From a virus: DNA of 45,105 nt. The DNA lies in IMG/VR virus record IMGVR_UViG_3300045988_173304. One strand, given 5' to 3'. Every line of letters begins with the position of its first letter. Position 1 is the stretch's first letter. The position numbers were made by a program, and so were the translations under genes. Of the stretch, positions 1-45,105 are shown piece after piece. The notes below the pieces were generated by a model. The model saw only the letters and a program-made list of their open reading frames with translations, was not told where the DNA came from and searched no databases.

Positions 1-77
1 CCAATTCAACAATTCAACTTAAAATGCTCATTTTATATAAGCTTATACGTTAAGTTTTTTTAACGGTGAAAAATTAT
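1..77 (+). repeat. 77-bp structured repeat, copy A (identical to 45029-45105; inverted copy at 27674-27750)
   Basis: Exact string identity read directly. Contains tandem CAATTCAA x2 (2-17) and three abutting palindromes (20-35, 36-47, 48-65). Confidence 0.95.
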
Positions 78-3910: not shown

Positions 3911-4264
3911 ATGAATCAAAAGCAAATTTTATTTTGTCAATACCTAATTGGGGAGTGTAAAGGTGACAAAGCACAAGCTGCAATCAAAGCAGGATATACA
4001 CCTGCTTCAGCAAGAACAAGTGCTGCAAAATTACTCAAAAGACGTGATATTCAGCAGTATATTACACAACTTAATGATGAAGTTGCACAGAATTACACCC
4101 AAGAGGTTGCTAAGTGTGTAAAATATAACATTGCTTCAATTGCTGAAATACAAGCTTTTTGGACAAAAATTATGAACGATGAAGATGAACCGATGAGAAA
4201 TCGACTCAGAGCATCCGAGCTTTTGGGTAAATCGAAAGGAATTTTTACTAACGATGGCTGGTAA
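3911..4264 (+). CDS. Terminase small subunit-like protein (Terminase_2-type)
   Basis: KQILFCQYLI...AAIKAGYTPASARTSAAKLLKRRDIQ...ELLGKSKGIF matches the recalled pattern of the Terminase_2 small-subunit family. Confidence 0.6.
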   Translation: MNQKQILFCQYLIGECKGDKAQAAIKAGYTPASARTSAAKLLKRRDIQQYITQLNDEVAQNYTQEVAKCVKYNIASIAEIQAFWTKIMNDEDEPMRNRLRASELLGKSKGIFTNDGW

Positions 4265-4955
4265 CTTGCGCAATTTTTACACTTCGAGAGATTGGGTTGA
4301 GCTTACAAAAATTATCCGTCTGGAGAGGATGAATGCTGAAGGACAACTGATCTGTGAATATTGTGGCAAACCTATTGTGGCCAAATATGATTGTATTTGT
4401 CACCATAAGATAGAGCTGACAGAGGCCAATTATTTGAATGCTACTATAGCAATGAATCCAGATAACATTATGCTGGTACATCATCGCTGTCATAATAAGA
4501 TACACAATAAACTATGCTATTCCAATAGACAGGTATATATTGTATATGGTAGTCCATTATCTGGTAAGAGTACCTTCGTTAAGGATAATATGGATGTTGG
4601 AGATTATATAGTAGATATCGATAATATATGGCAGAGTATTAGTGGATGCGATAGATATATTAAGCCTAATAGACTACGATCATGTGTGTTTAATATCCGC
4701 AACTATATGATAGATATGGTGCGTATGAGACAAGGTAAATGGCTTAATGCATGGGTCATTGGTGGTTATCCTCTTATATCTGAAAGAGAACGATTGAGCA
4801 AGACTCTTAATGCAAGAGAGATATATATTGACACATCAAAAGATGAATGTATTCGACGATTATATGAATGTGATGATGGTAGAAACATTGATGATTGGTT
4901 GAAGTACATCGATGATTGGTGGGAAAAATTTTCAATGGCCCCCCCATCTGCGTGA
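4254..4955 (+). CDS. HNH endonuclease fused to a P-loop NTPase/kinase-like domain
   Basis: CEYCGKPIV..CHHKIEL..MLVHHRCHNKIH is an HNH pattern. It is followed by YIVYGSPLSGKSTFV (Walker A). Its position just upstream of terS/terL is typical of cos-type HNH packaging helpers. Confidence 0.75.
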   Translation: MAGNLRNFYTSRDWVELTKIIRLERMNAEGQLICEYCGKPIVAKYDCICHHKIELTEANYLNATIAMNPDNIMLVHHRCHNKIHNKLCYSNRQVYIVYGSPLSGKSTFVKDNMDVGDYIVDIDNIWQSISGCDRYIKPNRLRSCVFNIRNYMIDMVRMRQGKWLNAWVIGGYPLISERERLSKTLNAREIYIDTSKDECIRRLYECDDGRNIDDWLKYIDDWWEKFSMAPPSA

Positions 4956-9887: not shown

Positions 9888-9899
9888 GAGGTGATAAAA

Positions 9900-10805
9900 A
9901 TGGACATGTTGCTATATGCGATTTTGAACAAGAAAATCAAAAATAGTGGTGGCTCTGGTGGCACTGCTGTTTATGTTCAGAACTGCACAATCAACGATGA
10001 TGGAAACCTCATTGTTACGCTGTCAGATGGTTCCACGATAAATGCAGGAAAAGCAAAAGGTGATACTGGTGCAGCTGGTCCTAAAGGCGACAAAGGTGAT
10101 ACTGGAGACACTGGGCCTGCTGGTGAGAATGGAACTGATGGCACAAATGGTACAAACGGAAAAGACGGTGTTTCACCGACAATTGAGGTGTATTCCAATA
10201 CTACAACGAGCTATCGACTGAAAATCAATAATGCTGATGGAACGTCAATCATTACTCCAAACCTAATTGGTACAGGCGCAACTACTACTCGGTATTATAT
10301 TTTCGATAATGCAATGTATGCGAATTATACTGACACAATTTACGCTGCGCCAAGCACGGGATTGAAGTCTCTAGGCGATTATGTTACAGAAGAAAATGCA
10401 TTTTGCAATGCTGACTCGAATCACTCAATGTATTATAATACAACATCATTTGGATGGAATCAGCAAGTACCTACATTTTGTACTACACCAATATCAATCA
10501 GCCCAACACAACTGCTGCTGTTTGGATATATCTCAAAGTCGATGAAAGATGGGGAATATTTCAAATTCATTCCTTCTGGGCTCGTTGATGGTACAACTAA
10601 TTTGGAAAAAGCACAGTCAATCCAAAGTTTATTGGCTGCTGGGAATGAAAGCATTGTGACAGTAGATTTTGAATATGTGTATGCGACTGCAGGTGTGACT
10701 GAAGCGGTTGACATTTCTTCCGTTCCTGCTGGTGAGTATTATTTAGTTTGGTCTGGTACCTCTGATAATAGCTCACCAAAAATCAACGATATTACGATTA
10801 TGTGA
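9900..10805 (+). CDS. Collagen-like (Gly-X-Y) repeat protein
   Basis: GDTGAAGPKGDKGDTGDTGPAGENGTDGTNGTNGKDG (nt 10059-10169). ATG 9900 follows a GAGGTGATAAAA SD. Confidence 0.75.
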   Translation: MDMLLYAILNKKIKNSGGSGGTAVYVQNCTINDDGNLIVTLSDGSTINAGKAKGDTGAAGPKGDKGDTGDTGPAGENGTDGTNGTNGKDGVSPTIEVYSNTTTSYRLKINNADGTSIITPNLIGTGATTTRYYIFDNAMYANYTDTIYAAPSTGLKSLGDYVTEENAFCNADSNHSMYYNTTSFGWNQQVPTFCTTPISISPTQLLLFGYISKSMKDGEYFKFIPSGLVDGTTNLEKAQSIQSLLAAGNESIVTVDFEYVYATAGVTEAVDISSVPAGEYYLVWSGTSDNSSPKINDITIM

Positions 10806-22134: not shown

Positions 22135-22288
22135 GCCATTCTTCAAGTGTTCTGAAATCGTCTTCTTCTTTGATTGCTTTCACTTCAGCTTCTTCATCAA
22201 GTCCAATTAGTAGCTGTTGATGGATTTCTTCAATTTCTTTTTGGATATTATCCAAGCGTTCTAACAATCGTTTGTAGTCAATTGCCAT
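22112..22288 (-). CDS. Small acidic helical protein, candidate antitoxin (58 aa)
   Basis: ATG 22288 follows a GAGGTGATATTT SD and overlaps the toxin stop by 11 nt. Sequence: MAIDYKRLLERLDNIQKEIEEIHQQLL..EEWQKEEPLD. Confidence 0.5.
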   Translation of the reverse strand: MAIDYKRLLERLDNIQKEIEEIHQQLLIGLDEEAEVKAIKEEDDFRTLEEWQKEEPLD

Positions 22289-22514
22289 AAATATCACCTC
22301 GTGGTCCAATTTTAATTACTTTGATTATATCATCCTCAATGTAGAATCGCACTCTATAATCGTCAACACGTAGTCGATAGTCACCACTATTTCCTTTCAG
22401 CTTTTTGATATCACCTTTTGGAATATTATTGATTGCACGCTCGATTTGTTCTCGTTTTGGACGATGCAACTTCTTCCAATATTTATATGCTTGCTTCGAA
22501 TATTTGACCTCCAT
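22278..22514 (-). CDS. RelE/ParE-family type II toxin
   Basis: ..KKLKGNSGDYRLRVDDYRVRFYIEDDIIKVIKIGPRGDIY matches the RelE/StbE signature (L.G....yRlRvGdyRv.y.i......v..i..R...Y). Confidence 0.75.
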   Translation of the reverse strand: MEVKYSKQAYKYWKKLHRPKREQIERAINNIPKGDIKKLKGNSGDYRLRVDDYRVRFYIEDDIIKVIKIGPRGDIYGN

Positions 22515-23245: not shown

Positions 23246-23281
23246 AGAGGCCGCTGAATGATTTCAGTGGCCTCTTTGTTT
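23246..23281. terminator. Bidirectional terminator
   Basis: 13-bp stem AGAGGCCGCTGAA / TTCAGTGGCCTCT (one G-U pair), flanked by A-run and T-run. Confidence 0.75.
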
Positions 23282-23511
23282 TATGATGTGACTTTTTTCA
23301 GAAGATCAATGTACTCCTGTTTTTCAATCACGTCTTCCAATTTACAATCAAGAGCAATGCATACTCGTAAAATTGTACCAATATTAGCGTGATCGAAATC
23401 CCTAGAACCTTGCTCATAATGCTGTAATACTCGCACATTGATTTCGGCTTTCTCAGCAAGCTGAGACTGAGACAAGCCTTTGGCCTGCCTCAATGTTTTC
23501 AGTTTTGTCAT
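23281..23511 (-). CDS. XRE-family HTH transcriptional regulator
   Basis: LRQAKGLSQSQLAEKAEINVRVLQHYEQG is a classic Cro/CI-type HTH. SD GAGGAGGTAACAT. Confidence 0.85.
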   Translation of the reverse strand: MTKLKTLRQAKGLSQSQLAEKAEINVRVLQHYEQGSRDFDHANIGTILRVCIALDCKLEDVIEKQEYIDLLKKVTS

Positions 23512-34883: not shown

Positions 34884-36635
34884 GTGAGTTCAATTCTTAA
34901 TTTTTACGACTTCGAAGTGTTCAAGGAAGATTGGCTCGTTGTAATTATCAATCCATACGAGAAATCAGAAGTGGTGATTATCAACGACAAAGAGAAGCTC
35001 CAAGAATATTACGATGCTCACAAGAATCAGATTTGGGTCGGTTACAACAATAACCATTATGACCAATATATTCTGAAGGCAATTCTTTGTGGATTCAATC
35101 CTAAGGAAGTCAATGACTTCATCATCAAGGAAGACAAAAAAGGATGGCAATTCAGTTCATTGTTTAAGAAGTTCCAAATGTACAATTTTGATGTTATGCA
35201 ACGTAATGACGGAGGGCTTAAGTCGCTTGAGGGATTTATGGGAAGCAACATCAAAGAAACATCCATTCCTTTCGATATTGACAGAAAATTGACAGAAAGT
35301 GAGATAGAAGAAACTATCAAATATTGCCGACATGACGTTGAGCAAACTATCGAAGTTTTCTTGCAAAGGAAAGACGATCTTGATGTGCAATTGGAACTAA
35401 TAAAAGAATTCAATTTGCCACTCTCATTTGTTACTAAAACACAAACACAACTCACTGCTGAAATTCTTGAAGCAAAATCAGTGAGATTTGGTGATGACTT
35501 CAACATCAATTTTCCTGAGTATTTGAACAAAATCAAGAAGTACAAATATATTGTCGATTGGTTCAAAAAGTTCAAGACAGACAAAATTCTTTCAGATGAC
35601 CAAAAGAAAGAAATCTATGGACAGAATTTGGAAACTGAAGTTGCAGGTGTACCTCATGTATTTGCTTGGGGAGGTTTGCATGGAGCATTACCAAAATACT
35701 TTGGTAAAGGTTATTTTTTGCACATTGACGTATCTCAGTATTATCCAAGTTTGATGACTGGTCACAACTATTTTAGTCGTGCAGCTTCAGATGAAGGAAA
35801 ACGAAGATATGAGATGATGCGAAAAGAATCTATTAGACTGAAAGCATTTCCTGAGCTTAAGAAAAAGCGAACAGGTTACAAGACTTGTAACAATAAAGCC
35901 TATGGTGCGATGAAGGATAAATACAACAAATTATTTGATCCGCTCAATGCAAATAACATTTGTGTCACAGGTCAGCTCGCATTGCTGCTTTTGATTGAAA
36001 TGTTGGAACCTCATTGCAAGCTGATTCAGAGCAATACAGATGGTCTGATCGTAAAGCTTTACTCAATTGATGATTATGAATTGATAGATGATATTTGTTG
36101 GGAATGGGAACAGCTTACACATGTAAAATTGGCATTCGACCCAATTATCACAAGAATCTATCAAAAAGACGTCAACAATTATTTGTTTGTCAATGAAGAT
36201 GGTGAAATTGAAAGTAAGGGTGCATATGTCAAATCACTTAGCCCTTTAGATTTTGATTTGCCGATTGTCAATAAAGCAATTGTTGATTATTTGATTTATG
36301 ACATACCAATTGAGAAGACAATCAATGAATGCGATGCACTGATTATGTTCCAAAAAATCGTCAAGCTTTCAGGTAAATTCAAGCATGTTGTTCATAATGG
36401 CAAGATTTTTACAGAAAAATGCTTTAGAGTTTTTGCCAGTACATGCGATTGTGATTCCTACATTGGAAAACAAAAAGAAGGCAATAATACAATCGAAAAA
36501 TTTGCAAACACACCTGAACATTGCTTCATCGTGAATGACGATGTGAAAAAAGCAACTGTTGGTTGGAGACTTGACAAAGAATGGTATATTAGCATGGCAA
36601 AAAGTAGATTGAAGCAATTTGGAGTGATTATATGA
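34884..36635 (+). CDS. Family B DNA polymerase
   Basis: ExoI FYDFEVF. Motif A DVSQYYPSLM. Motif B KTCNNKAYGAM. Motif C SNTDGLIV. GTG is the only available start upstream of ExoI. Confidence 0.8.
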   Translation: MSSILNFYDFEVFKEDWLVVIINPYEKSEVVIINDKEKLQEYYDAHKNQIWVGYNNNHYDQYILKAILCGFNPKEVNDFIIKEDKKGWQFSSLFKKFQMYNFDVMQRNDGGLKSLEGFMGSNIKETSIPFDIDRKLTESEIEETIKYCRHDVEQTIEVFLQRKDDLDVQLELIKEFNLPLSFVTKTQTQLTAEILEAKSVRFGDDFNINFPEYLNKIKKYKYIVDWFKKFKTDKILSDDQKKEIYGQNLETEVAGVPHVFAWGGLHGALPKYFGKGYFLHIDVSQYYPSLMTGHNYFSRAASDEGKRRYEMMRKESIRLKAFPELKKKRTGYKTCNNKAYGAMKDKYNKLFDPLNANNICVTGQLALLLLIEMLEPHCKLIQSNTDGLIVKLYSIDDYELIDDICWEWEQLTHVKLAFDPIITRIYQKDVNNYLFVNEDGEIESKGAYVKSLSPLDFDLPIVNKAIVDYLIYDIPIEKTINECDALIMFQKIVKLSGKFKHVVHNGKIFTEKCFRVFASTCDCDSYIGKQKEGNNTIEKFANTPEHCFIVNDDVKKATVGWRLDKEWYISMAKSRLKQFGVII

Positions 36636-38697: not shown

Positions 38698-38858
38698 TGA
38701 TCGAGTGCATCAGTTTTGAGGCCATGAATAGAATCAGTCTTGCAGCAAAGTTGGAGGAAATTTCTCGTAAGGTTGCAGTAATTGATTGGCATATGACGTA
38801 TGACCTCAACCGAAAAAAATTTGTTGCAATTGTGAGGTATGTCAAAAATGAACCGTAA
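38697..38858 (+). CDS. Hypothetical small protein (53 aa, below the ORF-track cutoff)
   Basis: TAATG overlap with the primase stop. Its end overlaps the next start. Hand translation gives MIECISFEAMNRISLAAKLEEISRKVAVIDWHMTYDLNRKKFVAIVRYVKNEP. Confidence 0.45.
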   Translation: MIECISFEAMNRISLAAKLEEISRKVAVIDWHMTYDLNRKKFVAIVRYVKNEP

Positions 38859-39120
38859 GTATTTTTCAGAGCGCTTGAAAGAATTACGCAGACTGAACAA
38901 AGAAACTCAAAATCATTTAGCAAATGCAATTTACGTGTCGGTAAGTACACTTCGAGGATATGAATCAATGGAACATGTTCCAAGTGTTGACATCCTCATC
39001 GCAATTGCAAAGCATTACAATGTGACAGTTGACTCGTTATTGTTTAAGAATGCCGATAGTTATTCAAAGCATTTGGAAAATAAGCTGCTACAGATTCGAG
39101 CCCTTACATGTGAATTTTAA
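38848..39120 (+). CDS. XRE-family HTH regulator
   Basis: LKELRRLNKETQNHLANAIYVSVSTLRGYESMEHVPSVDILIAIAKHYNVTVDSLL. Confidence 0.75.
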   Translation: MNRKYFSERLKELRRLNKETQNHLANAIYVSVSTLRGYESMEHVPSVDILIAIAKHYNVTVDSLLFKNADSYSKHLENKLLQIRALTCEF

Positions 39121-39130
39121 GGAGGAACAA

Positions 39131-39619
39131 ATGAGAATTTTGATTGATGGTTGTGATGGTACAGGAAAAACCACAATCAGCGAGAAACTTGCCAACAAAC
39201 TTGGCTGCAACATCATCAGATTGACATATAACGGTGATCGTTCACAACAGGCATATGTCGAACTGATGGAATGTGAAAATGTTGTACACGACAGAACTTT
39301 CCTCAGTGAAATTATCTATCCAAAGTATTTTGGAAGAGAAAGTAGATTGGACAAAAACGTTGTACCTAACCTGCTAAATTTCATTGAGCAGAACAATGTG
39401 AAGGTATTTATACTCACAGCGAAGCCAGAAACGATTCTGGAGCGCATTGACAAGCGAGGCGATGAATTTATCGCTGATTCTGAAAAGTTCATCCAGATAA
39501 ATCTGGACTATCTGAGTGTAGCAGAAGAATGTGGCTTCACCGTGGTTGATACAACAAATAAAACAATCGATGAAATTATCGATGAAATGTTAGGAGAGAT
39601 GAAAGATGATCGCAGATAA
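39131..39619 (+). CDS. dNMP (thymidylate-kinase-like) kinase
   Basis: ILIDGCDGTGKTT is a Tmk-type P-loop. About 160 aa. SD AAGGAGGAACAA. Confidence 0.65.
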   Translation: MRILIDGCDGTGKTTISEKLANKLGCNIIRLTYNGDRSQQAYVELMECENVVHDRTFLSEIIYPKYFGRESRLDKNVVPNLLNFIEQNNVKVFILTAKPETILERIDKRGDEFIADSEKFIQINLDYLSVAEECGFTVVDTTNKTIDEIIDEMLGEMKDDRR

Positions 39620-40406
39620 TATGGATGACATCTATAGAGGTATTTGCTTTGATTTGATGCAGGCACCTCAGGTAAGAGGAACGAAAGAGCTGAACGGGTA
39701 TTCCTTCACACTGACTAATTTGGATAACAACGTTATCAATGTGAGAAATATCTCAAAATCTTACATTTGCGGAGAGCTACTTTGGTACGCTCTGGGGCGC
39801 AACGATGTAGGGTTCATAAACAAGTTTGCTGGCCTTTGGGGTCGCATCTCTGATGACGGAGTAACCTCATATTCAGCATATGGTGATATTGTCTTCAGCA
39901 GACACGGTTTCAATCAGGTCGAGAAGATTATTCAGCTTTTATGCAATGACCCTACAAGCAGACGAGCCGTTATCAATTTCAATGTTCCAAATGAACATGT
40001 GATTGAGACAAAGGATGAGATTTGCACAATTGCTTTGCAGTTCTTGATTCGAGACGGCAAACTCAATTGTTACGGTATCATGCGCAGCAATGATGTTTGG
40101 TTTGGTTTACCGTATGACACTATTTTCTTTACGGAACTCACGAAGTATATTGCGAAAAGAGTTGGTGTTCCGTACGGTACATATACTCACACTGTTGTAA
40201 GTCTTCACGTTTACGAACGCAATTATGCTGACATTGAATTTGCAGCAAATGCCGTTCCAACTCTTCAAATTTCAGTAGATTTTGAAAAGTTGATGCAATA
40301 CAAATTTATTTTGGAACACATTGTGGAAACAAGTGACAGTCCAAAAATTGATTTGGTTCTGGCATGTGAAGATTATGGTATTTTGAAGGAGGAAAAGCAT
40401 GCGTAA
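39606..40406 (+). CDS. ThyA-fold pyrimidine C5-transferase with a cytosine-type Asp: candidate dCMP hydroxymethylase
   Basis: Catalytic Cys in EICTIALQF (codon 40023-25). RSND. GLPYD in place of the GLPFN of thymidylate synthase (Asp codon 40116-18). LHVYERN. Confidence 0.6.
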   Translation: MIADNMDDIYRGICFDLMQAPQVRGTKELNGYSFTLTNLDNNVINVRNISKSYICGELLWYALGRNDVGFINKFAGLWGRISDDGVTSYSAYGDIVFSRHGFNQVEKIIQLLCNDPTSRRAVINFNVPNEHVIETKDEICTIALQFLIRDGKLNCYGIMRSNDVWFGLPYDTIFFTELTKYIAKRVGVPYGTYTHTVVSLHVYERNYADIEFAANAVPTLQISVDFEKLMQYKFILEHIVETSDSPKIDLVLACEDYGILKEEKHA

Positions 40407-40989
40407 TTATGTCGTATATAAACATACTTGCCCAAACGGTAAGGTTTATATTGGCATTACTTTTTTAGATGTCAAACAACGTTGGAAAAATGGCTATAAA
40501 CATAATGCTCATTTTCAAAATGCAATCCTTAAATATGGTTGGGATAATATCAAGCATGAGATTCTTTTTGAAGGTCTTACGAAAGAAGAAGCTTGTCAGA
40601 AAGAAATTGAACTGATTACTCTGTATAAATCCAATCAAAGAGAATTTGGATATAACAAAAGTTCTGGTGGAGAATCTCATGAAGGTTGTAAAGCATCTAA
40701 AGAACTTCGTAAAAAATTAAGTGAGAGTCATATTGGAAAAAAGCAATCGCAAGAAACTATTGAAAAACGACGAAAATCTATGACCGGTAAGCGTTGGAAA
40801 TGTTCCGATGAAGCAAGACACAATATGAGTTTAGCAAAAAAAGGAAAGCCGACAAGTAAAAGGTTGATAATTGAAGGTAAATCACTTTATCAATGGAGCG
40901 AAGAGCTTGGCATAAAGCCTCATACTCTTTATGTAAGAATATTTACGTATAAGTGGCCTTTAGAAAAGGCATTATCAAAGAAAGGATGA
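40399..40989 (+). CDS. GIY-YIG homing endonuclease (free-standing)
   Basis: YVVYKHTCPNGKVYIGIT..RWKNGYKHN..KYGW..E is a GIY-YIG pattern. NUMOD3-like SESHIGKKQS / HNMSLAKKGKP. C-terminal HTH-like module. Confidence 0.85.
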   Translation: MRNYVVYKHTCPNGKVYIGITFLDVKQRWKNGYKHNAHFQNAILKYGWDNIKHEILFEGLTKEEACQKEIELITLYKSNQREFGYNKSSGGESHEGCKASKELRKKLSESHIGKKQSQETIEKRRKSMTGKRWKCSDEARHNMSLAKKGKPTSKRLIIEGKSLYQWSEELGIKPHTLYVRIFTYKWPLEKALSKKG

Positions 40990-40995
40990 TATATT

Positions 40996-41427
40996 TTGCG
41001 CATTCGTGTTATTGATTTTGGCTATGAAAGCCTTCCAAAAAGAGCTCATGCAAATGATGCAGGTGCAGATGTCCATGCTCACATTATTGGTTCTGAAGGA
41101 CAAAGCGGTGCTATCACGATCGCTCCAAATACAACGGTAAAAATTCCGTTAGGTTTGGGTTTAGTGCTTCCTGACGGTTATGCAGCTTTCGTATTTCCAC
41201 GAAGCGGTTTAAGCAGCAAAGGTATTACATGCGAGTTGCCTCCGATTGATTCAGGTTACCGTGGAGAGATTCACGCGATCGTTACCAATTGTAGTACTAA
41301 AGCAGTTGTTGTACACGATGGAGACAGAATCGGACAACTTCTCATAATGCCGATTGTTATCGCTGATTTCATCACTGATGATTTTGAACAACGTGGAACT
41401 GGAGCCTTTGGTAGTACAGGAGTGTAA
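40996..41427 (+). CDS. dut: Trimeric dUTPase-family enzyme (dUTPase, possibly dCTPase)
   Basis: AGADV, FPRSGLSSKG, IDSGYRGEI, GDRIGQL, RGTGAFGSTG: the five dUTPase motifs. Confidence 0.85.
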   Translation: MRIRVIDFGYESLPKRAHANDAGADVHAHIIGSEGQSGAITIAPNTTVKIPLGLGLVLPDGYAAFVFPRSGLSSKGITCELPPIDSGYRGEIHAIVTNCSTKAVVVHDGDRIGQLLIMPIVIADFITDDFEQRGTGAFGSTGV

Positions 41428-41429
41428 GC

Positions 41430-41672
41430 ATGGATGAAGGATATATCCAATTGGCAGGTGAAATTGTTAGAGGACAACTTAAACAATATCATGCGGCACT
41501 GAACAAATATTCACGTGAAAGCAGACGAATTGGTATATTACGGCAAATCACATCAATTGAACACGAGTTGTTAACACATTATTACGACGTGTTAACACTC
41601 GGTAAAATTGATTTTGAAGAGTATATTAAATGCAAGCACGAACAATATGGTATTAAGGAGAACGTGCAATGA
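41430..41672 (+). CDS. Hypothetical protein (80 aa)
   Basis: ORF coupled on both sides. Confidence 0.5.
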   Translation: MDEGYIQLAGEIVRGQLKQYHAALNKYSRESRRIGILRQITSIEHELLTHYYDVLTLGKIDFEEYIKCKHEQYGIKENVQ

Positions 41673-41971
41673 GTTTTTCAGAAAATTTGAAAATTTTTCG
41701 TAAGCAAAAAGGACTTTCGCAAAAGGAATTGTCACAAAAACTTGATGTGGATCAAACAAATTGCTCTGTATGGGAAAGAGGAATTTGTTATCCAAAAGTA
41801 AGCACATTGTTGAAAATATGCGATATTTTGGAAGTTACACCGAATCAGTTGTTTGACTATGACTTTGACGAGAATTATATGCAAGAGAAACTCGACCACA
41901 TTACTGAAGAACTTGACAGCTTGTGTGAAACAATCGAATATGCCAAAAAGAAAGTGGTGATAAACAAGTGA
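41669..41971 (+). CDS. XRE-family HTH regulator
   Basis: LKIFRKQKGLSQKELSQKLDVDQTNCSVWERG. Confidence 0.8.
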   Translation: MSFSENLKIFRKQKGLSQKELSQKLDVDQTNCSVWERGICYPKVSTLLKICDILEVTPNQLFDYDFDENYMQEKLDHITEELDSLCETIEYAKKKVVINK

Positions 41972-42023: not shown

Positions 42024-42734
42024 ATGATAAAAATTGAAAATACTGAAGTGTATGGTTGGGAAGCAGCCATTCGAGGAATGCGGAACCCGATGAATAGTTG
42101 GGACAAGTCAGATACCGAACTCACAATAAGCACCCAATATTTTGGGAATGTGAGCACACGGCGAACCGAAATTTGTATTGGAAAAAAAGACTTCGCCTTG
42201 ATGAAAACGCTCGTCGAGGCGGGTACAGACCACAGAAAATTCCTTCGCATGGTCAATGTGACAGTTGACATCACTGCGCCATTGTATTGGTGGAAAGAGT
42301 TTGACACATACAAGGTTGGTACTGTTCGTGATTCATGCTCAACGATGCACAAAATCACAGCGAAAGAATTTGAACTGAGTGATTTTTCAAGGGAGCATTT
42401 AATAACTTTGGATTATCAACATTATACCATTTTGGATACAGAAGAATTAGAACGGATTGAATTACAAACAGCATCGTTGGAAATTTTGAGAGTAATCATT
42501 CAGGCACTGAATAATTACAGAAATTTGTATCTTAAAACTAAAGATAAGAAACATTGGTGGCAGATAATTCAGCTTTTACCGTCAAGTTATAACCAGCGTG
42601 CAACAGTACAACTCAATTATGAGGTGCTGTTGAACATGTATCATTCGAGAAAGAATCACAAGCTCGATGAGTGGAGAACATTCTGCGAATGGATTGAGTC
42701 GCTGCCTTATATGGGGGAATTTTTAAATGTTTGA
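42024..42734 (+). CDS. ThyX (Thy1)-like protein with a non-canonical signature
   Basis: The overall pattern (..AGTDHRKFLRMVNVTVDITAPLYWWKEFDTYKVGTVRDSCSTMH..) resembles flavin-dependent thymidylate synthase. The RHRxxSxxxxSxR motif is replaced by FDTYKVGTVRDSCSTM. Confidence 0.4.
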   Translation: MIKIENTEVYGWEAAIRGMRNPMNSWDKSDTELTISTQYFGNVSTRRTEICIGKKDFALMKTLVEAGTDHRKFLRMVNVTVDITAPLYWWKEFDTYKVGTVRDSCSTMHKITAKEFELSDFSREHLITLDYQHYTILDTEELERIELQTASLEILRVIIQALNNYRNLYLKTKDKKHWWQIIQLLPSSYNQRATVQLNYEVLLNMYHSRKNHKLDEWRTFCEWIESLPYMGEFLNV

Positions 42735-42862: not shown

Positions 42863-44503
42863 ATGGAAAAATTTTATCTCGGAATCTCATTTGGTTTTAA
42901 CGCATCTGCGTGTGTTGTATCTAATGAACGAGGAGTGCTTGCAGCTATCTCTCAGGAACGCTTGAACGGTGAAAAGAACACCAAAGAGCTTCCTTTCGAT
43001 GCTGCTCTGAAGTGCTGTGAAATTACTGGTGTATACAATTTTGAAGCTCTCGCAGTATCTCACTATGAGAACATCAGCGTTAGTTATTTGCAGAAGTACG
43101 GTAAAAAGTACAATCTTCACGGTGACAAATGGCAAGATGTGATTCACAACTACTTCAGTGGAATTGAAATTGAGAAAATTGTACATGTACACCATCATTG
43201 GGCTCATGCGTATGCTACAACTGCATTTTATGACAATCCTGAGTTTGGTGATTACCTCATCACTTCTGACGGTTTTGGTGATGGCAGTAGTGGAATCATC
43301 TGCGAATATGGCGATATTGACGTTAGCGCAGATTTGCCACTCAGAGCGTCAATTGGTCTGGTGTACCAATTTGTGACAGGAGCATTAGGCTTCACAGAGC
43401 ACAAGCATGAAGGAAAAATTACAGGACTTGCTGCATTTGGCCACCCAAAATATCTGAGAGAATTCTATTCTTTGGAAGTTGAATCTCGCAAGGTAATTTT
43501 GACAGAGGAAGAAGAACAAATGGTGAAGGAATCTCACATCTATGATTTCAGTGATTTCCTCAAACTGAAGAAAGCAACTTACTCACTCGTTGAAAATCTG
43601 AAAGCAGCAGGAGCAACACGTGAGGACATTGCTGCTACAGTTCAGGAATATGCAGAGCAGAGTGTTTGCAAATGGATATATGAGAACGTCAACGAACGTG
43701 GTCACAATTGCTATCTGTCTGGTGGATTGTTTGCAAATGTGAAAATCAATCAGAGAATAAAAGAATTAGGCATCTTCAAGAATGTTTATGTGTGCCCTGC
43801 AATGGGAGATGAAGGTAATGCAATTGGTGCTGCTTATGCAATTATCGGTTGTATTCCTAAAGCAAAAATCAGTCCGAATCAATGCGGCACAGTTGCAAAT
43901 GAAGGTCTGATCGTAGGTGAGTCTGACAAGTATTCTTGCCGCAGAATTGCTGACGATAATGAATTGGCAAAGACAATCGCAGAGATGCTCAGCGAAAATA
44001 AGATTGTTTGCCTCGTTAAGGGTAAGATGGAATTTGGTCCTCGTGCTCTTTGTCACCGTAGCATCTTGTATAACTGCGACACAAAGGAAACCAATACTTG
44101 GCTCAATGAAAAACTTGGCCGCACAGAATTTATGCCTTTCGCTCCTGTATGCCGTGAAGAAGTAGCGGATGACCTGTTCTTGGAACTTGATGGTGGCAGA
44201 GACAGTGCAAAGCATATGACGATGACGTTCGATTGTACGCCAGAATTCGCCAGAGACTATCCTGCTGCTTGCCACGTAGATAATACTGCAAGACCTCAGA
44301 TAGTCTCTCAGGATGAAGACCCGTTCATCTGGAGCGTACTGAACAAATATCAAGAGTTAACTGGCAAGAAGGCACTCATCAATACGAGTTTCAACTTGCA
44401 CAATTACCCGATCATTGAATCGGCTGAAGTAGCAGTAAAGAGCTGGATCACTAGCGGTACAGATGTACTCGTTATCGGTAATACTGTATTGGAGAAAAAG
44501 TAA
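42863..44503 (+). CDS. NodU/CmcH/TobZ-family O-carbamoyltransferase
   Basis: N-terminal YLGISFGFNASACVV..ISQERL. HHHWAHAYATTAF. SDGFGDGSSG. GRTEFMPFAPV. NTSFNLHNYPIIES. These span both halves of the family as recalled. Confidence 0.75.
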   Translation: MEKFYLGISFGFNASACVVSNERGVLAAISQERLNGEKNTKELPFDAALKCCEITGVYNFEALAVSHYENISVSYLQKYGKKYNLHGDKWQDVIHNYFSGIEIEKIVHVHHHWAHAYATTAFYDNPEFGDYLITSDGFGDGSSGIICEYGDIDVSADLPLRASIGLVYQFVTGALGFTEHKHEGKITGLAAFGHPKYLREFYSLEVESRKVILTEEEEQMVKESHIYDFSDFLKLKKATYSLVENLKAAGATREDIAATVQEYAEQSVCKWIYENVNERGHNCYLSGGLFANVKINQRIKELGIFKNVYVCPAMGDEGNAIGAAYAIIGCIPKAKISPNQCGTVANEGLIVGESDKYSCRRIADDNELAKTIAEMLSENKIVCLVKGKMEFGPRALCHRSILYNCDTKETNTWLNEKLGRTEFMPFAPVCREEVADDLFLELDGGRDSAKHMTMTFDCTPEFARDYPAACHVDNTARPQIVSQDEDPFIWSVLNKYQELTGKKALINTSFNLHNYPIIESAEVAVKSWITSGTDVLVIGNTVLEKK

Positions 44504-45028: not shown

Positions 45029-45105
45029 CCAATTCAACAATTCAACTTAAAATGCTCATTTTATATAAGCTTATACGTTAAGTTTTTTTAACGGTGAAAA
45101 ATTAT
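45029..45105 (+). repeat. 77-bp structured repeat, terminal copy (identical to nt 1-77)
   Basis: Exact identity read directly. Confidence 0.95.

Follow-up and report, generated by a model that had tools for sequence, protein, structure and literature searches.

What does a carbamoyltransferase of the kind best known from antibiotic tailoring (TobZ, GdmN and NovN) do in a phage genome? The question is raised by the virus record IMGVR_UViG_3300045988_173304 of IMG/VR, a stretch of 45,105 nucleotides (hereafter the window) that encodes a 546-amino-acid (aa) member of this family. A first reading made from the letters alone (the sequence-only reading) regarded such enzymes as foreign to phages and the gene as cargo, and argued that it serves nucleotide or DNA chemistry and not lysogenic conversion. 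Our analysis supports this last view through conserved gene context and homology to an experimentally validated DNA 5-hydroxymethylcytosine (5hmC) carbamoyltransferase, and for these reasons the gene is probably to be read as an ATP- and carbamoyl phosphate-dependent 5hmC O-carbamoyltransferase, with 5-carbamoyloxymethylcytosine (5cmC; 5cmdC as the deoxynucleoside) as the predicted product in phage DNA. The other two views had to be given up, as 148 phage records hold carbamoyltransferase homologues, two PHROG families cover such enzymes and a phage 5hmC enzyme was characterised in 2021, while the window gene lies within a replication and nucleotide module and is thus neither a moron nor loose cargo.

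The open reading frame (ORF) and all motifs quoted for it were present in the translation, namely GFNASA (residues 11–16), HHHWAHAY (110–117), SDGFGDGSSG (135–144), GRTEFMPFAPV (419–429) and NTSFNLHNYPIIES (507–520). The profile search proposed along with the sequence-only reading recovered both halves of the family, with Pfam Carbam_trans_C (PF16861) matched over its full profile (1.7e-51, 174.6 bits against a cut-off of 27) and Carbam_trans_N (PF02543) matched at 3.5e-29 (102.8 bits against 24) over residues 106–324 only. PHROG 1601, 'Nol-like carbamoyltransferase', aligned end to end (4.4e-79) and is filed in the category 'moron/auxiliary metabolic gene'. Among solved structures in the Protein Data Bank (PDB) the best match was GdmN (2.3e-51, residues 10–542), followed by NovN and TobZ. 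The metal/nucleotide motifs H111, H115, D136-G-F-G and G315-D316-E were invariant in 28 family members and align with GdmN, and a ratio of non-synonymous to synonymous substitution (dN/dS) of 0.08–0.17 indicated purifying selection.

The chemistry proposed here has been demonstrated once, for a metagenomic enzyme. Yang et al. (2021, eLife; PMC8670742) found carbamoyltransferase domains enriched on cytosine-modified metavirome contigs, and only on those contigs did they co-occur with Asp177 homologues of the thymidylate synthase ThyA, deoxycytidine monophosphate (dCMP) deaminases and PRA-PH pyrophosphatases. Their purified 554-aa enzyme requires carbamoyl phosphate and ATP, converts 5-hydroxymethyldeoxycytidine (5hmdC) to 5-carbamoyloxymethylcytosine in single-stranded DNA (double-stranded DNA less well), in RNA and as 5hmdCTP, and is inactive on 5-methyl-dCTP (5mdCTP) and on 5hmdUTP, the corresponding deoxyuridine nucleotide (PMC8670742). 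The window enzyme is best read as belonging to a deep, uncultured and divergent clade of this known conversion. A neighbour-joining tree of 104 sequences placed the window family and the validated clade in one group in 94/100 bootstraps, and in HMMER comparisons the best non-self partners of the validated clade were members of the window family (94–140 bits versus 48–62 for GdmN).

Further support was sought in single residues. TobZ residues W408, G421 and R423, three positions flagged by MetaGPA, were mapped by the W-x12-G-x-R spacing around EFGPRALGxRS, TobZ itself lying outside the alignment and its numbering being inferred. Cellular enzymes showed WGR at the equivalent positions in 61/80 cases, with the G and R invariant, whereas the validated clade had [I/V]-[C/G]-T and the window family [L/I/V]-C-[R/T] in 118/119. 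By the same spacing the window enzyme reads L/C/R and the validated enzyme I/C/T, two of the three being shared; if the putative equivalences hold, they would support the grouping as characters independent of the tree. The two enzymes have in common the two-domain TobZ-type architecture, an Asn for Asp in loop 1 (GHNASA and GFNASA), a Cys rather than Gly after EFGPRAL, an aliphatic residue rather than Trp 13 residues upstream, a His at the equivalent of position 180, and a genomic link with an Asp177 ThyA homologue, in many cases joined by a dCMP deaminase. They differ in that the window enzyme belongs to a separate deep clade known from sequence alone, has Phe for the loop-1 His, keeps the Arg at the TobZ-423 equivalent, sits in a cassette where a trimeric dUTPase takes the place of a MazG/PRA-PH pyrophosphatase, and comes from a phage with an apparently Firmicute-type host.

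The sequence-only reading also called for a survey of phage genomes and neighbouring genes, and this was carried out on 80 IMG/VR viral loci, 23 with the motif G-[F/H/Y]-N-x-S-A (98% down to 32% identity) and 57 without, and on 80 cellular loci. An Asp177 ThyA homologue lay within 10 kb of the carbamoyltransferase in 20/23 loci with the motif and in 0/57 of the other viral loci, three of which were instead near an Asn177 true thymidylate synthase, while no cellular locus (0/80) had a ThyA, deaminase, dUTPase or kinase neighbour. The deaminase and the ThyX-like gene had been put forward as the telling neighbours, but the decisive one is the ThyA homologue 2.5 kb upstream, which had gone uncited. 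Close relatives of the window enzyme form more than 120 sequence clusters at 48–99% identity, many on contigs of 40–52 kb, and divergent members keep the kinase, ThyA homologue and carbamoyltransferase together even where the replication backbone differs, as in one that has DnaG, PolIII-alpha and RecA. This context bears on the proposal that the gene encodes an auxiliary metabolic or tailoring enzyme of the NodU/TobZ/GdmN kind, to which the 'Nol-like' genes of cyanophages may also belong, acting on a glycan, a cell-envelope component or a small molecule, with its nucleotide surroundings coincidental. Such a function would agree with the antibiotic-tailoring enzymes among the best structural matches and with the PHROG category, but we consider it improbable, given a context kept down to 32% identity over different phage backbones and shared by none of the cellular loci, a score of 114.1 bits against the cut-off of 1000 for the NodU equivalog (NCBIfam NF041651), and the lack of any glycosyltransferase or biosynthetic cluster nearby.

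Cultured phages show the same association. Relatives of the validated enzyme occur in Xanthomonas phage Xp15 (gp39; 39% identity), in Acinetobacter phages HHU4, Effie and MD-2021a (~35%) and in Bacteroides fragilis phages including BF503P1 (~32%), and in each of these a gp42-like ThyA homologue (D143/T147/D169/D177) lies within a few kb of the carbamoyltransferase, with a deaminase or dUTPase close by, as in the window. Their enzymes differ from that of the window in falling within the validated clade (32–39% identity to the validated enzyme, 27–28% to the window) and in coming from phages of Gram-negative hosts; as far as the literature surveyed shows, nothing has been published on the DNA chemistry of Xp15, the three Acinetobacter phages or the BF503P1 group. 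The 'Nol-like' enzymes of cyanophages and pelagiphages (PHROG 1601) have the same Pfam domains and are likewise phage-encoded, but they keep the canonical His-Asp pair and WGR (S-SSM7) and lack the Asp177 ThyA linkage.

The ThyA homologue is predicted to be the supplier of the 5-hydroxymethyl acceptor. Its best PDB match was the CMP hydroxymethylase MilA (1.7e-29), with thymidylate synthases at 4e-17 or weaker, and it stayed under every NCBIfam thymidylate-synthase cut-off. Aligned with E. coli ThyA and T4 gp42, both taken from annotated records, it retains C146, R166, S167, D169, Y94, H207 and Y209 and carries the changes N177D and H147T (E. coli numbering); the combination D143/T147/D169/D177, identical to that of T4 gp42, was found in this protein and in 27/27 other carbamoyltransferase-linked ThyA homologues examined. 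According to Lee et al. (2026; PMC13326640), N177D specifies dCMP as substrate, L143D/E a hydroxymethyl product (a hydrophobic residue at 143 giving methyl) and D169N a flavin-dependent 5-hydroxy-dCMP synthase. As L143D, H147T, D169, N177D and C146 are all as in T4 gp42, a dCMP hydroxymethylase is predicted. Its closest cultured homologues (43–53% identity) belong to Enterococcus phages, VPE25 and VFW among them, and when tested with bisulfite, MspI and PvuRts1I the DNA of these phages behaves like glucosyl-5hmC DNA (PMC4999554).

Alternatively, the ThyA homologue could make 5-methyl-dCMP or 5-hydroxy-dCMP, in which case the carbamoyltransferase would have no DNA acceptor or would form 5-carbamoyloxy-cytosine from 5-hydroxycytosine. 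Asp177 enzymes are often methylases and a flavin-dependent 5-hydroxy-dCMP synthase branch exists in the ThyA superfamily, yet residue 143 is Asp, as in hydroxymethylases, residue 169 is Asp and not the Asn diagnostic of the 5-hydroxy-dCMP synthases, and the best PDB match is a hydroxymethylase, so that we give this alternative little chance. The D143/D169 signature together with the VPE25/VFW relatives speaks to the caveat that Asp177 enzymes often methylate. In the distant relatives L096, L097, L098, L101 and L103 the ORFs of the carbamoyltransferase-linked ThyA homologue are 470–508 aa long, roughly double the usual size, and may be fusions to a further domain, possibly the kinase.

Taken as a 5hmC carbamoylation pathway, the genes would act in the following order. 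The ThyA homologue would convert dCMP to 5hm-dCMP, the phage deoxynucleoside monophosphate (dNMP) kinase and the host NDP kinase would raise this to 5hm-dCTP, and the phage polymerase would build it into DNA. The YrdC-like C-domain of the carbamoyltransferase would then make carbamoyl-AMP and its Kae1-like N-domain transfer the carbamoyl group, either to 5hmC in (single-stranded) DNA or to 5hm-dCTP, while the deaminase, dUTPase and ThyX-fold protein could plausibly channel dC nucleotides into dU and dT. The expected gain would be resistance to restriction and other DNA-targeting defences. This logic of dCMP hydroxymethylase, dNMP kinase, dCMP deaminase and own polymerase is that of the T4 hydroxymethylcytosine pathway (gp42, gp1, gp56, cd and the alpha/beta-glucosyltransferases), and both systems would decorate the 5-CH2OH group, T4 with glucose from UDP-glucose and the window phage, as predicted, with carbamoyl from carbamoyl phosphate and ATP; T4 differs in having the gp56 dCTPase, none being found in the scanned window proteins. 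With TobZ, GdmN and NovN the window enzyme shares the fold, the metal-binding motifs and the predicted two-step chemistry through carbamoyl-AMP, but not the conserved His-Asp general-base motif, the predicted acceptor or the genomic context.

The altered His-Asp pair requires closer attention, as the loop-1 residue His27 of GdmN is the general base and the H27N variant is inactive (PMC9633730). As the sequence-only reading had pointed out, the usual G-x-HD-x-SA reads GFNASA in the window enzyme, with F12-N13 at the site of the pair; the loop-1 alignment shifts by one residue between MAFFT/HMMER and BLASTP, and our claim is limited to the pair not being intact. Within the window family position 12 was Phe in 106/120 sequences (88%) and His in 14/120, with N13 invariant in place of Asp. 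A scan for co-varying columns showed that residues 12 and 180 switch together in 121/121 sequences, as F12 with H180 (n = 107) or H12 with L180 (n = 14), the full sets being G11-F12/H180 versus S11-H12/L180 (residues 11–12 and 178–181; window positions 42893–42898 and 43394–43405). The H-type sequences are dispersed over the tree and require 10–12 changes by parsimony, that is, at least 10 independent switches. Their scatter persisted in trees built from residues 1–100, 100–200 and 201–546, and a single recombining allele was therefore rejected as the cause of the co-variation. In more distant clade members residue 12 is F or Y and His180 is present throughout, and intermediates (Y12 and S11-Y12) were found in the distant members L101–L103. 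His occupies both positions in the validated enzyme, Xp15 and HHU4, and the position-180 column in 2/80 cellular enzymes. In the window–GdmN alignment His180 falls on Phe201, which in the GdmN structure forms, with V24, F25 and F26, the acceptor-binding surface beside His27 (PMC9633730). The perfect co-variation and the alignment with Phe201 suggest that in the window family the general base may have moved from the loop-1 His to His180, and the F12/H180 and H12/L180 forms offer a testable case of a catalytic residue shifting its place within an active site.

These observations also bear on whether the enzyme, lacking its loop-1 general-base His, is catalytically impaired or decaying. The inactivity of GdmN H27N and the Phe found in 88% of the family would point that way, but with clear purifying selection, invariant active-site motifs, more than 120 sequence clusters and a His180 that could compensate in perfect co-variation with position 12, decay seems very unlikely.

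The downstream deaminase was an argument of the sequence-only reading. The overlap that it described is real: in the junction ...AAG TAATG AAA... the carbamoyltransferase TAA (44501–44503) and the deaminase ATG have one base in common, and a GGAG sits 8 nt upstream of that ATG. The functional weight given to this coupling was not borne out, as the deaminase lies within 24 nt of the carbamoyltransferase in close relatives only and is 5–8 kb away or absent elsewhere in the clade (L096–L113 and L002), where the ThyA adjacency stays; translational coupling is thus not a conserved functional requirement. The same distribution informs a further proposal, that the acceptor is 5-hydroxymethyl-uracil, with the deaminase making 5hm-dU from 5hm-dC nucleotides and the product being 5-carbamoyloxymethyl-uracil, a new thymidine-type hypermodification. 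The stop/start overlap is in its favour, as is the ability of phage deaminases linked to Asp177 ThyA to deaminate 5hmdC and 5mdC nucleotides, but the validated enzyme is inactive on 5hmdUTP and most of the clade has lost the deaminase adjacency while keeping that of ThyA, which leaves a uracil-type acceptor improbable and 5hmC the preferred one.

The gene upstream of the carbamoyltransferase had been called ThyX-like, and this stands at the level of the fold and not of the sequence. The AlphaFold model of its 236-aa product (pLDDT 80) matched no structures but those of ThyX in Foldseek (probability 1.0, TM 0.58–0.66). Pfam Thy1 remained below threshold (E 0.014, 15.7 bits versus a cut-off of 24.8), the ThyX motif RHRxxSxxxxSxR was missing in 32/32 members of the protein's family, and a sequence profile of the family gave no meaningful match in the PDB, so that the fold comparison alone is informative. 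The family is large, at least 8,000 homologues, and those listed carry no Pfam domain; relatives include P0121–P0240, and members occur in phages of Clostridium, Enterocloster, Clostridioides and Fusobacterium. None of these phages was among the phage records with carbamoyltransferase matches. In a phage of ~123–124 kb the gene (L179, 10001–10735) adjoins genes for a dNMP kinase, an anaerobic ribonucleotide reductase and a dUTPase. This contig, the longest with a ThyX-fold homologue, was considered as a possible host chromosome and rejected, being a large phage. The protein is probably an enzyme of nucleotide metabolism, and on its modelled fold it is possible that it substitutes for a thymidylate synthase.

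Several points weigh against the 5hmC carbamoyltransferase assignment. The window enzyme does not have an intact canonical His-Asp pair, although GdmN depends on its His, and over a full-length alignment it is only 26% identical to the sole characterised enzyme (...FGFNASA against ...LGHNASA at the start). The neighbour-joining group could reflect long-branch attraction, both clades being long branches, and the window enzyme scored higher with GdmN (178 bits) than with the validated clade (94–118 bits). On the side of the acceptor, 5/7 tested Asp177 enzymes gave 5mdCMP, so that Asp177 alone is no proof of hydroxymethylation, and the L143D rule is a correlation. No dCTPase of the gp56 or MazG/PRA-PH type was found (no PF01503 match among the scanned window proteins, small ORFs not all having been scanned), and full replacement of cytosine is therefore not assured. 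Finally, both the function of the clade and the presence of 5cmdC in its phages are predictions from sequence and context.

If the assignment is correct, it stretches the 5hmC-to-5cmC system to a large uncultured clade of more than 120 clusters on phage-sized contigs of 40–50 kb, apparently from phages of anaerobic Firmicutes. What is possibly new, judged from these comparisons, is the recurrent His12/His180 exchange, a possible association with temperate phages and the reach of 5cmC chemistry into phages of anaerobic Gram-positive bacteria. Such enzymes may be recognised by linkage to a D143/D169/D177 ThyA homologue, the loop-1 Asn and the Cys after EFGPRAL. Carbamoyltransferases acting on 5hmC are already in use for 5hmC detection, and divergent variants may differ in substrate or strand preference. 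DNA containing 5cmC would also affect how gut phages respond to restriction and CRISPR and how they behave in sequencing.

The host is apparently an anaerobic, gut-type Gram-positive bacterium of Firmicute type, as indicated by the capsid relatives, the strong GGAGG-type ribosome-binding sites and the endolysin type; the nearest cultured relatives of the capsid infect Butyrivibrio, Bacillus and Terrisporobacter. The window encodes an intact tyrosine integrase, which three IMG/VR contigs carry alongside the carbamoyltransferase and whose omega of 0.04–0.06 indicates strong purifying selection. An exact-sequence look-up of the integrase gave no match, and among the matches listed in a prophage scan of 185,579 species genomes there was no family member above 36% identity and no integrated copy, an absence that is no more than suggestive. 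VPE25 and VFW encode an integrase-family gene and yet behave as obligately lytic (PMC4999554). We put forward as a tentative and rather doubtful extension that a lineage of integrase-carrying, possibly temperate siphophages of Clostridia type replaces or decorates its cytosines as 5-carbamoyloxymethylcytosine in lytic growth, with a general base that left loop 1 for position 180 and flipped back at least 10 times. Should these phages indeed be able to lysogenise, a temperate phage would have a pre-replicative pathway of cytosine hypermodification, and its recombinase would need to act on modified attP DNA.

Table 1. Location of the carbamoyltransferase gene and associated features in the window (HTH, helix-turn-helix).
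Feature	Position	Strand	Basis or remark
Carbamoyltransferase, predicted 5hmC O-carbamoyltransferase	42863-44503	+	ATG start, 546 aa; Pfam N and C domains
ThyA homologue, predicted dCMP hydroxymethylase	39606-40406	+	MilA match, gp42-like residues; 2.5 kb upstream of carbamoyltransferase
dNMP kinase, T4 gp1 analogue	39131-39619	+	Pfam Thymidylate_kin 4.2e-14, P-loop
DNA polymerase	34884-36635	+	PHROG 1252 'DNA polymerase' at 1.9e-158
Trimeric dUTPase	40996-41427	+	Pfam dUTPase 4.5e-20; NCBIfam dUTP diphosphatase 98.8 bits vs cut-off 103
ThyX-fold protein, 236 aa, divergent active-site motif	42024-42734	+	AlphaFold and Foldseek
dCMP/dCTP-type deoxycytidylate deaminase, 136 aa	44503-44913	+	PF00383 5e-20; PHROG 174 at 3e-41
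Two small XRE/Cro-type HTH regulator genes within nucleotide module	38839-39120 and 41669-41971	+	
Intact tyrosine integrase	26589-27629	-	PF00589 at 2.7e-21
RelE-like toxin gene and small XRE-type HTH gene	22278-22514 and 23281-23511	-	PHROG 1213 (RelE); XRE by sequence alone

An exact direct repeat of 77 nt at the ends of the window (1–77 and 45029–45105), consistent with an assembler k-mer overlap, indicates a complete circular or permuted genome of ~45,028 bp, and an IMG/VR contig of 98% identity is collinear across the window ends. The genome, of ~45 kb, is siphovirus-like, with an M15/GH25 endolysin, TerL, portal, capsid and a Sipho_Gp37 tail protein, and further encodes an SNF2 helicase, a PD-(D/E)XK/AAA_24 protein, the PHROG 1252 polymerase and a D5-type primase-helicase. 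Downstream of the primase follow, in this order, a small HTH gene, the dNMP kinase (start ATG 39131 chosen by hand from the translation), the ThyA homologue, a GIY-YIG endonuclease gene, the dUTPase, an ORF without family match (41430–41672), the second small HTH gene, the ThyX-fold protein, the carbamoyltransferase and the deaminase; the adjacency of kinase and ThyA homologue is conserved in relatives as well.

The GIY-YIG homing-endonuclease gene (40399–40989, +) is an insertion that separates the ThyA homologue from the dUTPase. Contig L091, at 98% identity, lacks the gene and has 22 nt in place of about 618, a presence/absence polymorphism of the sort expected for mobile endonucleases. The window contains no tRNA genes, and when 15 kb of it were compared with 50,697 phage records for near-identical DNA, a 198-bp helicase match was the sole result and no cultured relative was found.

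Over the whole window, sites below expectation were GATC (72 observed, 153 expected), CCWGG (10 and 35) and TTAA (138 and 413), while GCNGC was above it (122 observed versus 57 expected), counts that carry no weight for or against DNA modification. An HNH endonuclease gene (4254–4955, +) lies just upstream of the terminase genes, an arrangement typical of HNH-dependent cos packaging, and the portal and capsid genes flank a gene (9891–10805, +) for a protein with a collagen-like triple-helix repeat that scores just under the Pfam cut-off.

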